Virus record (IMG/VR): IMGVR_UViG_2671180921_000012
DNA: 64,000 nucleotides
Direction: 5' to 3' (one strand)
From: a virus
Lineage: Duplodnaviria; Heunggongvirae; Uroviricota; Caudoviricetes
The notes below the pieces were generated by a model that saw only the letters and a list, made by a program, of their open reading frames with translations, was not told the DNA's origin and searched no databases. The position numbers and the translations under genes are program-made. Shown piece by piece: positions 11,046 through 57,855 of this stretch; within the stretch, counting starts at the first letter, position 1; each line of letters begins with the position of its first letter.

Positions 11046-11074
11046 TTGACCTTTTAATCGTTCAGGCTTATAGT
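11046..11074 (+). promoter_or_regulatory. Sigma70-type promoter for immI transcript (TTGACC-N17-TATAGT)
   Basis: Near-consensus -35/-10 with 17-bp spacer, downstream of the C1 operator. Confidence 0.5.
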
Positions 11075-11184
11075 TCCACCGTCGTAGCAAATTCTGCGAC
11101 CGGGTTTAGCAGCCTGAATGTTAGTGCGGACAACCGCAGATATCCGATATTGCGGTATTTTTGTGTCCGTAAAACCGCGTTACG

Positions 11185-11262
11185 CCCAAATTATGGTGGG
11201 GCGTGATGGGGAGGCTTCGGCCTGCTGGTTTCACTAACGCCAGTCTGCTAACCCCGTCACGT
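11185..11262 (+). ncRNA. c4: c4 antisense repressor RNA (boundaries approximate)
   Basis: Contains b' CACTAAC (11232-11238) and a' CTGCTAAC (11245-11252), complementary to a1/b1 (11104-11113, 11120-11126) and a2/b2 (11273-11282, 11304-11310); b2 overlaps the icd SD. Confidence 0.6.
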
Positions 11263-11321
11263 CCTGCCACCTGTTTAGCAGCGGGTAGCAGGTTGTTAAA
11301 CCTGTTAGTGAGGCCGTAACT

Positions 11322-13568: not shown

Positions 13569-14414
13569 ATGCTGGCTAAAGTCACTTTCCTGAGCTGTAT
13601 AACGATGAGCGATTTTACTTTTTCTGGCTATGAATTGGCCTGCTTTGTAACACACTCCGGTCTATCCCGTAGCGCCGGGCATATCCTGTCGCAATGTGCA
13701 AATCTAGCGGCAACAACCAGTGAATACTTCATTCACAAGCCTCACCGCCTGATCGCGGCAGAAACTGGTTATAGCCAATCAACCGTCGTTCGTGCATTCC
13801 GTGAAGCTGTAAACAAAGGAATTCTGTCTGTAGAGATTGTTATCGGCGATCACCGTGAACGTCGCGCTAACCTGTACCGGTTTACACCATCCTTTTTGGC
13901 CTTCGCACAACAAGCCCAAAATGCGCTGATTGAAAGCAAATTAAAGATCTCTTCAGCGGCAACCAAGGTTAAAGCTGTTCTCGCTAAGACATTGGCTTTA
14001 TTTAATTTTTTATCCACACCCCCATGTCAAAATGATACCCCCTCCCCCTGTCAGGATGACGTGGCAATAAAGAATAAGAAGTCACAAGTTAAAAAAACAA
14101 AAAGATCAGTTTCCGGCGGTGCCGGAACGACCAGACTCAAAAAATTGACTTCATGGATCGCTGAGGCAAAAACAAAGGCTGACAATCTGCGGTTATCCAA
14201 AAAACGCGCTCAAAAACATGAGTTCAAGCAGAAAGTAGAGGCGGCTGCGCGGAAATATGCTTACCTGAAGAACAAGCGTTCTCCTGATATTGGCGGGGTA
14301 TCAAACTTCGATAATCTGCCGCATTGCATGACGGTAAACGAAGCTCTTAATGCGGTTTTAGCCAAAAATAAAGATAACGAACAATGGGGTATACCGGCAG
14401 GATTCAGAGGGTGA
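13569..14414 (+). CDS. repL: Lytic replication initiator RepL (281 aa)
   Basis: 281 aa and position after kilA match P1 RepL; sequence not independently verified. Confidence 0.55.
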   Translation: MLAKVTFLSCITMSDFTFSGYELACFVTHSGLSRSAGHILSQCANLAATTSEYFIHKPHRLIAAETGYSQSTVVRAFREAVNKGILSVEIVIGDHRERRANLYRFTPSFLAFAQQAQNALIESKLKISSAATKVKAVLAKTLALFNFLSTPPCQNDTPSPCQDDVAIKNKKSQVKKTKRSVSGGAGTTRLKKLTSWIAEAKTKADNLRLSKKRAQKHEFKQKVEAAARKYAYLKNKRSPDIGGVSNFDNLPHCMTVNEALNAVLAKNKDNEQWGIPAGFRG

Positions 14415-14465
14415 TAGATTGCTCTAATCTGGAGTCACCTGGCGTTTTCAGTTTGAGGTCGGAGA

Positions 14466-14710
14466 TGCAATCTGATTTTTTACAGTTAGCGATCGCTTTT
14501 GCAGGATATGTTTGTATTGGCTTCTGTGTATACATGATCAGCCGAAAAATGCTTGTCGATATCGACCGCAAAGAACAAGCAGAGGAGATCTTAGTATGGA
14601 TTTTCTTTGGCGCGGTCTGGCCATTAGGGATCATGTTTGCTGCAACATTTCTTCTGATGTGGATATTCACCCTTCCTGGTGATTTCTATAGAAAAAAAGC
14701 CAGACATTGA
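14466..14710 (+). CDS. Small two-TM membrane protein (81 aa)
   Basis: Two hydrophobic helices (LAIAFAGYVCIGFCVYMI; WIFFGAVWPLGIMFAATFLLMWIF). Confidence 0.35.
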
Positions 14711-14779
14711 TACAATCGTTGCGGGTGCTTGAGGCTATCTGCTTCAGGCATTACCCGAAAAGCAGATAGAAGAAAGCCC

Positions 14780-14845
14780 CAGATAACATCACGCGTCCTG
14801 CAAGACGCTTAACATTAATCTGAGGCCATATCTATGCTTAGCATA
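14780..14845 (-). ncRNA. sok: Sok-like antisense RNA (approximate)
   Basis: Minus-strand promoter TTGACC (14878-14873) N17 CTAATC (14855-14850); transcript would be antisense to the mok start/RBS region. Confidence 0.4.
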
Positions 14846-15040
14846 CGTAGATTAGCCTCTTACCGACCAAAAGGTCAAGGAGAAGCAGGCTATGAAGCAG
14901 CAAAAAGCGATGTTAATCGCTCTGATCGTCATCTGTTTAACCGTCATTGTGACGGCACTGGTAACGAGGAAAGACCTCTGCGAGGTACGAATCCGAACCG
15001 GCCAGACGGAGGTCACTGTCTTCACAGCCTACGAATCTGA
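14834..15040 (+). CDS. mok: Mok-like overlapping reading frame (68 aa)
   Basis: ORF in alternate frame almost fully overlapping hok, as in hok/mok/sok loci. Confidence 0.55.
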   Translation: MLSIRRLASYRPKGQGEAGYEAAKSDVNRSDRHLFNRHCDGTGNEERPLRGTNPNRPDGGHCLHSLRI

Positions 15041-15047
15041 AAGGTAA
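14892..15047 (+). CDS. hok: Hok/Gef-family type I toxin (51 aa)
   Basis: MKQQKAMLIALIVICLTVIVTALVTRKDLCEVRIRTGQTEVTVFTAYESER, near-identical to Hok/Gef family; SD AAGGAG 6 nt upstream; below ORF-track size cutoff. Confidence 0.85.
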   Translation: MKQQKAMLIALIVICLTVIVTALVTRKDLCEVRIRTGQTEVTVFTAYESER

Positions 15048-15121
15048 GAGACCTGGCGGGGAGAGATCTCCGCCACTCTTCGTGTGTCAGGTATCCTCAA
15101 TGCACCCTTTCCTCTCCAAAT

Positions 15122-15144
15122 AAAAAAGCTCCCGAAGGAGCTTT
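15122..15144 (-). terminator. Rho-independent terminator ending the head/sheath operon
   Basis: AGCTCC-CGAA-GGAGCT hairpin followed on the minus strand by TTTTTT. Confidence 0.65.
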
Positions 15145-15163
15145 AAAATAAAAGGGATGACTC

Positions 15164-15673
15164 TTAATCCCACTCAATCCAGTTGTAGACGATACGAAGT
15201 GACGGGCGCACAGCGGCAGTCACATCTTCGGTACTAAAGTCGATTGCATCACTGTAGATTTTGCAGTCCAACATTTCAATTGTTGTAGCAGCTTTTGTCA
15301 CAGCGTTAACCCCGGAAGATTTGGATTCAGGGGTAGCAGCCATCGTGATATCAACATAGTCCTTCGCCGCAATGCGATCCTTGATGAACTGAAGAATATC
15401 GCCTTCGATAGTCTCCACGCACTGGACCTGGATTTCCCCAGAGTTTCGAATTGGTCCGTGCTGGTTGAACTTCACACCATTCGGACCATAGTCCTCCACA
15501 TCCTCGCGGGTCATTTCAGGAATTTGCGACGTGCGAACCAGTACGCTGATATCTTCATGGCCTGCAAAAGTGAGCTGGAATTCAGAAGATACCAGTCGTT
15601 CGCCTTTGGCCGCGTTGGCAGTATAGCGGCCCTTAATAAATTTACGGTTTCCCTTAGTGTTATTGTGCCCCAT
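15164..15673 (-). CDS. Virion structural protein (169 aa)
   Basis: Last gene of the minus-strand late operon downstream of the sheath gene. Confidence 0.4.
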   Translation of the reverse strand: MGHNNTKGNRKFIKGRYTANAAKGERLVSSEFQLTFAGHEDISVLVRTSQIPEMTREDVEDYGPNGVKFNQHGPIRNSGEIQVQCVETIEGDILQFIKDRIAAKDYVDITMAATPESKSSGVNAVTKAATTIEMLDCKIYSDAIDFSTEDVTAAVRPSLRIVYNWIEWD

Positions 15674-16301: not shown

Positions 16302-17117
16302 TTAGCCAAGGCGCTTACGGCGCAGTTTCATTGACTTTTTGCGGGCAAGTTTTGCCGCGCCGGTCTGGGCTTTTCGACGCGCTTTTTTCAGCGCCGATTT
16401 TTGAGCCGCAGTCAGACGTTTTTTACGCAGGCGTTTACGGATGAGTTTGATCTCACCGTTACGAACAACCTTCTTAAATGCTTCAGTCAGCATTTCATCA
16501 GAAGTGCCAGCAACAACAAACGCCGCTTCCAGTTCGTCGCGGTCGTCGCTATCTAAACCAGCGATAGAGGCACCAACATCAGCAGCTGCGTCGTCGTCTT
16601 CATCGTCAGCCAGTGCTTCGATCAGGTCATCATCTACACCGCATGCTGCGAGGAAGTCAGCAACATTTGCCCATGCTTCGTTATAGGCATCGTCCTGTTC
16701 TTCTGTAACTTCGGAGTCGTCGTCATCAGAGATACCAGCGATAGCCTGAACGAAACCATCAAGGGAGTCGAAAGTCAGATCACCGCTATCAGCCCAGGCG
16801 AAAACGGCGTCGGCCGCATCACTCAACGCATTTTGCATAGCACTTCGATTTGCAGCTTCCAGAATCATCTGGTGCGCCTGTTCGACGGTCCATTCTTTAC
16901 CGTCTTTCCCTTCCAGGATTTGCTCAGGAGCCGGGGCAGATGGAACGTTATCGTTAGTCTGTGCCGCCGGTTCCGGATTATTATTAATAACCGGATCTGT
17001 TGGCGGTTCGGCGCTTGCTCGGGCAGACTCCATCAGCTGCACAGGATCAGAGTTCAAAGCGAAACGAGACAGTCCATTCCCCAAAAATGCCCCGGATTGA
17101 AAAAAGTTTTTGCTCAT
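16302..17117 (-). CDS. Highly acidic protein with strongly basic C-terminal tail (271 aa)
   Basis: Asp/Glu-rich body (DDDSEVTEEQDD..., ADDEDDDAAAD) and C-terminus KLIRKRLRKKRL...KLRRKRLG. Confidence 0.45.
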   Translation of the reverse strand: MSKNFFQSGAFLGNGLSRFALNSDPVQLMESARASAEPPTDPVINNNPEPAAQTNDNVPSAPAPEQILEGKDGKEWTVEQAHQMILEAANRSAMQNALSDAADAVFAWADSGDLTFDSLDGFVQAIAGISDDDDSEVTEEQDDAYNEAWANVADFLAACGVDDDLIEALADDEDDDAAADVGASIAGLDSDDRDELEAAFVVAGTSDEMLTEAFKKVVRNGEIKLIRKRLRKKRLTAAQKSALKKARRKAQTGAAKLARKKSMKLRRKRLG

Positions 17118-51292: not shown

Positions 51293-51777
51293 GCGAAATT
51301 AATTACCAGGCACTGCGTGAGGCGGCGGAACGTGCAATTCCAGCAATGGAACGCCTGTTAATGTTGCCAGCTGATGATGATTTGTTAAGTGAACAGGAAC
51401 TTAAAGATTACGGTGTGGATATTGATGCGCTCAACGCCTTCAAATTTCTGGCCGGACCAGAAACCGTGCTGGCACTACTGGATGAACGGGAAAGGAACCA
51501 GCAATACATCAAATCCCGCGACCAGGAGAACGAGGATATTGCGCTAACGGTAGGGAAGTTGCGCGTTGAGCTTGAGGCAGAAAAACAGCGGGCAAAGGAT
51601 CTGTTTATGGAAAATGCTCGGCTTAAGTCAGGTATAGCCGGTCTGATACACCTCGGTATTCGATATGCAGATGTTGATGTCATGAAAATTGCTGGAGATG
51701 CCCAGCTTTCTACCCCATGCACTGACAGCATCATAAACAGCATTGCAACAGGCATTCGCATCAACGGAGGTGAGTAG
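51289..51777 (+). CDS. Ea22/Ead-like protein, paralogue 3 (162 aa)
   Basis: N-terminus MSEINYQALREAAERAIP matches paralogue 1 N-terminus. Confidence 0.5.
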   Translation: MSEINYQALREAAERAIPAMERLLMLPADDDLLSEQELKDYGVDIDALNAFKFLAGPETVLALLDERERNQQYIKSRDQENEDIALTVGKLRVELEAEKQRAKDLFMENARLKSGIAGLIHLGIRYADVDVMKIAGDAQLSTPCTDSIINSIATGIRINGGE

Positions 51778-57253: not shown

Positions 57254-57475
57254 ATGCAATCCATTAACTTCCGTACCGCGCGTGGCAACCTTTCTGAAGT
57301 GCTCAACAATGTTGAAGCCGGGGAAGAGGTTGAAATCACCCGCAGAGGCCGTGAGCCAGCAGTAATTGTCAGCAAGGCTACTTTCGAAGCCTACAAAAAA
57401 GCGGCGCTGGATGCTGAATTTGCATCCCTGTTTGACACCCTGGACTCCACCAACAAGGAACTGGTTAACCGATAA
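57254..57475 (+). CDS. phd: Phd antitoxin (73 aa)
   Basis: [39 protein letters not shown]... recognised as P1 Phd. Confidence 0.9.
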
Positions 57476-57855
57476 TGAGGCATATATCACCGGAAGAACT
57501 TATTGCGCTTCATGATGCGAATATAAGCCGCTACGGCGGCCTGCCGGGAATGTCAGATCCGGGTAGGGCAGAGGCCATTATCGGGAGAGTTCAGGCCAGA
57601 GTTGCCTACGAAGAGATCACCGACCTTTTCGAAGTCTCCGCCACCTACCTGGTGGCTACAGCGAGAGGGCATATATTCAATGATGCCAATAAGCGTACCG
57701 CGCTAAACAGTGCGCTGCTATTTCTACGCCGTAACGGGGTGCAGGTATTTGATTCACCTGAACTGGCAGACCTTACTGTAGGCGCTGCGACTGGCGAGAT
57801 ATCTGTATCTTCTGTCGCCGACACGTTACGTAGATTGTATGGTTCTGCGGAGTAG
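57475..57855 (+). CDS. doc: Doc toxin (Fic-fold kinase, 126 aa)
   Basis: Overlaps phd stop; [11 protein letters not shown] Fic-type motif; 126 aa. Confidence 0.9.

Follow-up and report, generated by a model that had tools for sequence, protein, structure and literature searches.

A hok/mok/sok locus of the hokD/hokW subfamily at the rlfA-rlfB-pmgF site of a P1-like phage-plasmid

The hok/sok locus of plasmid R1 (parB) encodes a Hok peptide of ~50 residues, a mok reading frame that overlaps hok, and an antisense RNA, Sok, that covers the start of mok. The mRNA of this locus contains the tac and fbi elements of a fold-back, the ucb and dcb boxes, and a protective stem-loop at its 3′ end. Pairing of tac with fbi and of ucb with the Shine-Dalgarno sequence of mok (SD-mok) has been described for the inert full-length R1 hok mRNA, and the roles assigned below to ucb and to the 3′ terminal stem-loop are those given in the same source (PMC9841398). 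Closer to the sequence considered here are the hokW/mokW/sokW locus of 933W, the Rac-type mok/hok locus (MN652886), and hokD (relF) of Escherichia coli K-12. We analyzed a 64,000-nucleotide stretch of viral DNA (Caudoviricetes; IMG/VR record IMGVR_UViG_2671180921_000012), referred to as the window, to which all coordinates refer unless another sequence is named. In sequence and predicted structure, the architecture of the R1 locus was matched in full between positions 14711 and 15107. It is virtually certain that this segment is an intact hok/sok locus replacing rlfA-rlfB-pmgF of P1. Very probably, it represents a complete hok/mok/sok locus of the hokD/hokW subfamily, carried as cargo of a P1-like element, with the lytic replicon (repL) on one side and the late gene bplB on the other, and stabilizing that element. 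Taken separately, the proposal that hok/sok is active and stabilizes the element is one that our analyses make likely.

The coding part of the locus comprises the following features.

14892-15047, plus strand: hok toxin gene, 51 residues, MKQQKAMLIALIVICLTVIVTALVTRKDLCEVRIRTGQTEVTVFTAYESER (list of open reading frames and HOK_GEF profile match)
14834-15040, plus strand: mok reading frame, 68 residues, overlapping hok (list of open reading frames; annotated as mok in the Rac homologue)
14822-14825, plus strand: Shine-Dalgarno sequence of mok, GAGG, 8 nt upstream of the mok ATG (read from the sequence)

The 51-residue open reading frame had been assigned to the Hok/Gef family by eye, and alignment confirmed the assignment. 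The peptide matched Pfam HOK_GEF (PF01848) over profile positions 1 to 42 of 42 with a score of 78.7 bits (cutoff, 22; E value, 2.4e-22) and PHROG 251, "MokW-like host killing," with an E value of 4.9e-32. Its length of about 50 residues and its predicted N-terminal transmembrane segment are those of a Hok/Gef-family toxin. The peptide was 96% identical to K-12 HokD, with which it shares the PGAP gene name hokD (WP_001313475.1), and only 42% identical to R1 Hok, a figure obtained with an unconfirmed query; the locus is assigned to the hokD/hokW prophage subfamily. The queries for K-12 HokD, Phd, and Doc are backed by the near-perfect matches that they gave. The mok frame matched phrog_37205 (E value, 8e-21), and searches of Pfam and NCBIfam returned no match for Mok. 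As read from the sequence, mok lies upstream of and overlaps hok and has its own Shine-Dalgarno sequence, and translation of hok is predicted to be coupled to that of mok. Between positions 14400 and 15400, the gene order is the end of repL (13569-14414, plus strand), a small open reading frame, the 51-residue open reading frame with the overlapping 68-residue one, and bplB (15164-15673, minus strand).

The promoter and structural elements of the mok-hok mRNA were assigned as follows.

14689-14716, plus strand: candidate hok promoter, TAGAAA-16-TACAAT with a TG extension (promoter scan; predicted +1, G at 14723)
14723-15112, plus strand: full-length mok-hok mRNA, 390 nt (3′ end approximate; may extend to the backbone hairpin at 15125-15144)
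14723-14734, plus strand: tac element GGGUGCUUGAGG, pairing with fbi in the minimum-free-energy (MFE) structure of the full-length RNA and with ucb in the Rfam structure of the processed form
14774-14780, plus strand: ucb, the anti-Shine-Dalgarno box AAGCCCC, pairing with SD-mok in the full-length fold and with tac in the Rfam structure
15054-15075, plus strand: 3′ stem-loop UGGCGGGGA/GAGA/UCUCCGCCA, with a 9-bp stem and a GAGA loop (folds; expected to end and protect the processed mRNA)
15095-15107, plus strand: fbi, the fold-back inhibitory element CCUCAAUGCACCC (also written CCTCAATGCACCC), pairing with tac in the MFE structure

The −10 element of the candidate promoter lines up with TAGAAT in the hok loci of Rac and 933W, and position 1 of Rfam model RF01794 falls on the predicted +1. 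This model, named "sok," matched positions 14723 to 14897 of the plus strand over its full length (model positions 1 to 157) with 112.2 bits (gathering score, 59; E value, 1e-25). Since RF01794 matches the plus strand and its last positions fall at the hok AUG, it is a model of the hok mRNA leader, of which Sok is the exact complement. Together with the profile match of mok and with the block of homology to prophage loci spanning 14711-15107, this match upholds the hok/mok/sok locus that the original prediction had placed at 14711-15110.

Folding of the 390-nt RNA yielded −153.2 kcal/mol, with a z score of −7.7 in comparison to dinucleotide shuffles. In this MFE structure, tac and fbi form 12 pairs (14723-14734 with 15095-15107), providing the predicted long-range fold-back of the full-length mRNA, and ucb sequesters SD-mok at 14822-14826. 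The Rfam consensus structure pairs tac with 14774-14780 (tac/ucb stem) and GAGGC at 14822-14826 with GCCUC at 14855-14859 (SD-mok/dcb stem), an arrangement that is modeled as the open, processed form of the mRNA. The tac/ucb stem, the hairpin targeted by Sok, and the SD-mok/dcb stem of hok leaders are all found in this predicted structure. For the truncated RNA (14723-15078), and likewise for the first 175 nt alone, the MFE structure was the 5′ metastable hairpin. A stable stem-loop is also present in the predicted folds at 15054-15075, and it is the predicted stop point of 3′ processing. The original prediction had recognized this hairpin, GGCGGGGA/TCTCCGCC (equivalent to GGCGGGGAGA/TCTCCGCC), but had taken it for the fold-back; the hairpin exists, whereas the fold-back element is CCTCAATGCACCC at 15095-15107, which pairs with 14723-14734, and 15054-15075 is rather the 3′ protective stem-loop. 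Among 35 distinct homologues from viral contigs and phages, 92% of the pair cells of the full-length fold were kept versus 37 to 43% with slid partners, a generous control, given that one of the aligned sequences had supplied the structure. Compensatory changes, by which pairing was kept and sequence changed, were seen in the 5′ hairpin and in the 3′ stem-loop (helix 17). The tac/fbi helix (helix 1) was paired in 100% of the cells, the only changes being from G-C to G-U.

The antisense partner was located on the opposite strand.

14772-14842, minus strand: predicted Sok antisense RNA, ~71 nt (coordinates transferred by alignment from the annotated sokW of 933W)
14849-14878, minus strand: putative Sok promoter, −35 TTGACC at 14873-14878, −10 TAATCT at 14849-14854, 18-nt spacer (sequence reading)

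The 5′ leader of the predicted Sok RNA is single stranded and lies over the mok start; a long hairpin and a CUUUC(UUCU) tail follow it, the hairpin and U tail folding with −32 kcal/mol and a z score of −4.45. Since Sok was placed from ~14842 to 14772, it covers both the mok start codon and SD-mok. The promoter call combines a reading of the sequence with homology to the annotated sokW, and the position of the promoter agrees with the 5′ end of sokW in 933W. A minus-strand promoter of the form TTGACC-N17-CTAATC had been proposed. Both hexamers are present with that distance between them (reverse complements at 14873-14878 and 14850-14855), but, by homology to the annotated sokW of 933W, the −10 element is more likely TAATCT, which has the A at its second and the T at its sixth position that CTAATC lacks, so that the register is probably N18.

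In an alignment of hokD-type loci (A3), columns 137 to 160, corresponding to 14826-14852 and to the start of mok, were the most variable part of a family that is otherwise 89% identical. This stretch encodes the 5′ leader of Sok and occurs as several distinct alleles. Judged from the sequences, the variable leader looks like a specificity determinant that would limit cross-talk between co-resident copies. The allele of the window is near the Rac type, with one or two differences, and distant from the 933W type, with differences at many positions; cross-protection by resident prophages would therefore likely depend on the host.

The block shared with the lambdoid prophage loci is restricted to 14711-15107 and displayed 90.3% nucleotide identity to the Rac-type locus and 86.5% to hokW/mokW/sokW of 933W. 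In both, tac and fbi are essentially identical to those of the window and Hok is nearly identical. The two relatives differ from the window copy by their location in integrated prophages; in addition, mokW and hok of 933W are in the same frame, and the Rac-type locus possesses an intrinsic terminator of its own. Matches to K-12-type chromosomes begin only at the equivalent of position 14878 (H128-H130), indicating that the leader, the mok start, and the Sok region are missing there, whereas the window copy is complete. Unlike R1 hok/sok, the locus of the window is carried by a phage-plasmid, and the terminator beyond fbi is provided by the P1 backbone.

The setting of the locus in that backbone is defined by the following features.

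14418-14428, plus strand: C1 repressor operator core ATTGCTCTAAT, the counterpart of P1 Orlf/Op55 (blastn breakpoint)
14429-15121, no strand assigned: replacement cassette of 693 bp, orf81 plus hok/sok, replacing P1 51586-53411
14465-14710, plus strand: orf81, 81 residues, predicted two-helix membrane protein (phrog_3772; E value, 3e-54; full length)
15125-15144, no strand assigned: P1-backbone hairpin AAAGCTCC-CGAA-GGAGCTTT, a strong terminator of the minus-strand bplB operon (terminator scan; shared with P1 from 15122)
57254-57852, plus strand: phd-doc, the classical P1 addiction module (tblastn; 100% identity to Phd and 99% to Doc)

Comparison by blastn showed that homology to P1 (NC_005856) and P7 ends at 14428 and resumes at 15122. 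The left break corresponds to P1 51585 and falls within Orlf, a C1 operator annotated at 51575-51591; the window retains the 11-bp operator core ATTGCTCTAAT and differs from Orlf in the last six bases. This core forms the left junction of the cassette, because P1 homology stops at its last base. The 11-mer occurs in nine copies in the window versus 0.05 expected. The right break corresponds to P1 53412, just before the backbone hairpin, which begins ~18 nt after fbi, where Rac-type loci have their own terminator, ACCCGCTTCGGCGGGTTTTTT. Between the same two landmarks, the C1 operator that follows repL and the terminator of bplB, P1 and P7 harbor unrelated content, the 1,826-bp P1 segment consisting of rlfA, rlfB, and pmgF (a DUF3800 protein, RlfB, and PmgF). 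No hok match was found anywhere in the NC_005856 record, in which only the two flanks aligned, in one place and with 75% coverage. The original prediction was thus right that P1 has rlfA and rlfB at this position and no identical locus. The flanking genes (kilA, repL, bplB, pmgG, and gene 21) were 96 to 99% identical to those of P1 and P7 at the nucleotide level and in the same order, a synteny that assigns the backbone, on sequence grounds, to the P1-like phage-plasmids (Punavirus). The hallmarks of P1 immunity and maintenance, C1 operators, the c4 antisense RNA, and phd-doc, are present. The element would consequently possess two addiction-type modules, as had been anticipated, phd-doc being of type II, with a protein antitoxin and a protein toxin, whereas hok/sok is of type I, with an RNA antitoxin and a membrane peptide.

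In P1, rlfA, rlfB, and pmgF were nonessential and bplB was essential in a CRISPR interference screen (PMC10695390). The rlfA-rlfB-pmgF segment is one of eight highly variable regions (region 5) in a survey of 54 P1-like plasmids (PMC9603915), and the substitution at this site was mentioned in a 2019 paper (PMC6906374). Since the cassette boundaries lie in conserved backbone, namely the core of the C1 operator and the terminator of bplB, exchange of the cassette by homologous recombination fits, rather than transposition. The cassette gene orf81 (WP_001369095.1 in PGAP) belongs to a PHROG family without an assigned function and had no match in Pfam, NCBIfam, or PADLOC. The −35 element of hok sits within the last codons of orf81, and a weak terminator-like hairpin is present at 14667-14682.

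The cassette is widespread. A 711-bp query was found with at least 80% coverage in 263 PLSDB plasmids, and 235 of 5,426 complete E. coli genomes contained a match to a 951-bp query that spans both junctions; the P1-type rlfA-rlfB-pmgF segment was present in 99 plasmids. Among the top PLSDB matches listed, sizes were ~79 to 187 kb, mostly 90 to 100 kb, and nearly all hosts were E. coli or Salmonella. Most matching PLSDB records (480 of 606) were typed as nonmobilizable. The same arrangement is present in MH422554, MH445380, MH445381, Ro157c2YLVW, and phi456 with 98.5 to 99.5% identity. In P1-like plasmids sequenced so far, the site is most often occupied by the hok/sok cassette, which is already annotated in hundreds of records, where GenBank names the gene hokD (PGAP) or, in one phage record, MokW. 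The locus itself is an ordinary, typical representative of a thoroughly studied family. The description of the locus as variant specific therefore overstated its rarity. Searches of the literature for hok in P1-like or IncY elements returned only hok genes of other plasmids, and no paper analyzing the locus as hok/sok in P1-like elements was found in the library covered. P1-like phage-plasmids disseminate resistance genes in E. coli and Salmonella. Their common form would carry two independent addiction-type modules, and laboratory reference P1 is in the minority state at the cassette site, which bears on the difficulty of curing and on the value of P1 as a model of the group. The practical benefit is cleaner annotation, the understanding of hok/sok or of P1 being unchanged, and a short experimental note on hok/sok in P1-like elements would still be new. 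In a 98.9-kb P1-like viral contig (L012:874-940), hok/sok is followed after fbi by a different sequence (...CCCCAATAGTGTAAAACA), which implies, from the sequence, a further variant of the right junction.

A third state of the site is represented by a toxin-less cassette, found in RCS47, SJ46, and 673R5 and in 125 PLSDB plasmids in all.

L007:2583-3607, L008:2023-3040, L009:1100-2416, and L090:1801-2522: toxin-less cassette

In this form, orf81 and the hok leader are retained up to the equivalent of 14854-14857 and are followed by a 765-bp segment that contains, instead of hok, an unrelated minus-strand gene for a product of 198 residues, which had no match in Pfam. SJ46 has a homologue of orf81 with an identity of only 44% to orf81 of the window. 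The toxin-less cassette retains the whole Sok-coding stretch, the −10 element, and a −35-like TTGCTC (TTGCTC-N18-TAATCT). The SJ46 version has 57% identity to the window over the tac region but 84.5% over the Sok stretch, which still folds. Another subform has different neighbors on the left side of Sok as well and has nevertheless kept the Sok stretch. The retained stretch may encode an orphan antitoxin Sok or simply serve as the terminator of the gene for the 198-residue product. SJ46 also carries, next to repL, a gene annotated as "replication protein RepL" (L008:1308-1823) that encodes an outer membrane beta-barrel protein of the Ail/Lom type (Pfam OMP_b-brl, E value of 2e-24; Ail_Lom, E value of 1e-22); judged by these matches, it is another cargo gene at the same hot spot.

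These site states bear on the history of the locus. It is possible, though on balance doubtful, that the hok/sok cassette is ancestral in the P1 lineage and that rlfA-rlfB-pmgF of P1 and P7 is the later replacement, the opposite of the direction taken in the original prediction. The numbers of plasmids in each state (263 with hok/sok, 99 with rlfA-rlfB-pmgF, and 125 without the toxin) agree with this order of events, but they reflect the sampling of clinical E. coli rather than phylogeny. The toxin-less form is clearly derived from the hok/sok form, because it retains the hok leader, and the divergence of the SJ46 orf81 homologue suggests long residence of this type of cassette; on the other hand, the identity of 87 to 91% between hok/sok of the window and the lambdoid copies suggests a comparatively recent import, at least of the hok part.

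The steps by which an intact hok/sok locus would stabilize the element follow the R1 paradigm, to which the present analysis contributes sequence and predicted structure. The weak promoter would produce a stable mok-hok mRNA, the full-length form of which would be inert because tac is paired with fbi and because ucb occupies the ribosome-binding site of mok. Slow trimming of the 3′ end to the stem-loop at 15054-15075 would remove fbi, enabling tac to pair with ucb and exposing the mok start. As long as the plasmid is present, short-lived Sok made from the convergent promoter would pair over the mok start, and the duplex would be destroyed. If the plasmid were lost, or transcription shut off, Sok would decay first, mok and hok would be translated, and the 51-residue Hok peptide would damage the inner membrane, leading to cell death. 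RNA-based postsegregational killing of this kind would be added to the protein-based phd-doc module.

Several observations weigh against an active, stabilizing locus. The consensus promoter scan called the hok promoter and not that of Sok, the −10 element of which is weak on paper. Two NCBIfam Hok models matched the 51-residue peptide with scores below their curated cutoffs. The MFE structure of the processed RNA contains no tac/ucb stem, the open form being backed by the Rfam covariance model only. No double compensatory change was found for tac/fbi in the 35 homologues, which neither supports nor contradicts the pairing; since these elements are nearly invariant, the covariation evidence for this helix is nil. 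The native terminator that follows fbi in Rac-type loci is absent here, and the plus-strand face of the backbone hairpin offers a short U run only. Finally, 4,748 of the 5,426 E. coli genomes carry a related hokD-type sequence, and chromosomal Sok, if encoded by such resident copies, could blunt killing in some hosts.

The same machinery may have been selected for abortive infection or for the exclusion of competitors rather than for plasmid retention, a role that is not exclusive of stabilization and that we consider unlikely to be the main one. According to this proposal, Sok would decay and Hok would kill the cell when a lytic phage shuts off host transcription or when a competitor displaces the prophage. 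The closest relatives of the locus are all in integrated lambdoid prophages (933W, Rac, and Stx phages), which are not lost by missegregation, so that an exclusion role is equally compatible with the sequence. In addition, P1 already has phd-doc as well as partition functions, and R1 hok/sok reportedly excludes T4, an observation said to have been made by Pecota and Wood in 1996. Conversely, the PADLOC defense models matched neither Hok nor orf81, the neighboring genes are not defense genes, and the sequence has no feature that separates exclusion from stabilization.

Less probable still is a role of hok/sok at this site in competition between incompatible P1-like plasmids, on which the Sok stretch of the toxin-less cassettes bears. 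If the orphan Sok were expressed, it would act as an anti-addiction device, and toxin-less P1-like plasmids could displace their hok/sok relatives without killing of the host.

Lastly, the locus might be a passenger of the cassette, inactive or attenuated and of no effect, as is said of most hok copies on the chromosome of E. coli K-12. Two P1-like viral contigs (L016 and L025, from ~877 onward) carry an insertion in the 3′ stem-loop of the hok mRNA, at the equivalent of 15068, which begins with CATAAGCGCTAACTTAAGGGTTG, presumably an IS186 end. The insertion would, from its position, separate fbi from the mRNA. It matches the IS186B insertion reported for pSvP1 at the hok site, with a direct repeat matching the hairpin (PMC6906374). 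Although this interruption, the missing native terminator, and the 125 plasmids without a hok open reading frame, which indicate that loss of hok is tolerated, speak for a passenger, this explanation is improbable for the window, in which the predicted promoters, tac, ucb, SD-mok, mok, hok, dcb, the 3′ stem-loop, and fbi are all intact, the Hok profile match is full length, and the cassette is 99 to 100% conserved in hundreds of plasmids, even if recent common descent could explain that conservation.

Four Rfam matches in the window were rejected: a minus-strand "sok" match at 14632-14780 (20 bits; E value, 0.25) and two snoRNA matches near 16577, all below threshold and attributed to chance, and a CRISPR-DR46 match at 15114-15149 (E value, 0.94), which corresponds to the bplB terminator hairpin. 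Other RNA genes identified by Rfam represent ordinary P1 content.

11068-11274: C4 antisense RNA with its a1/b1 targets
31815-34041: three tRNA genes

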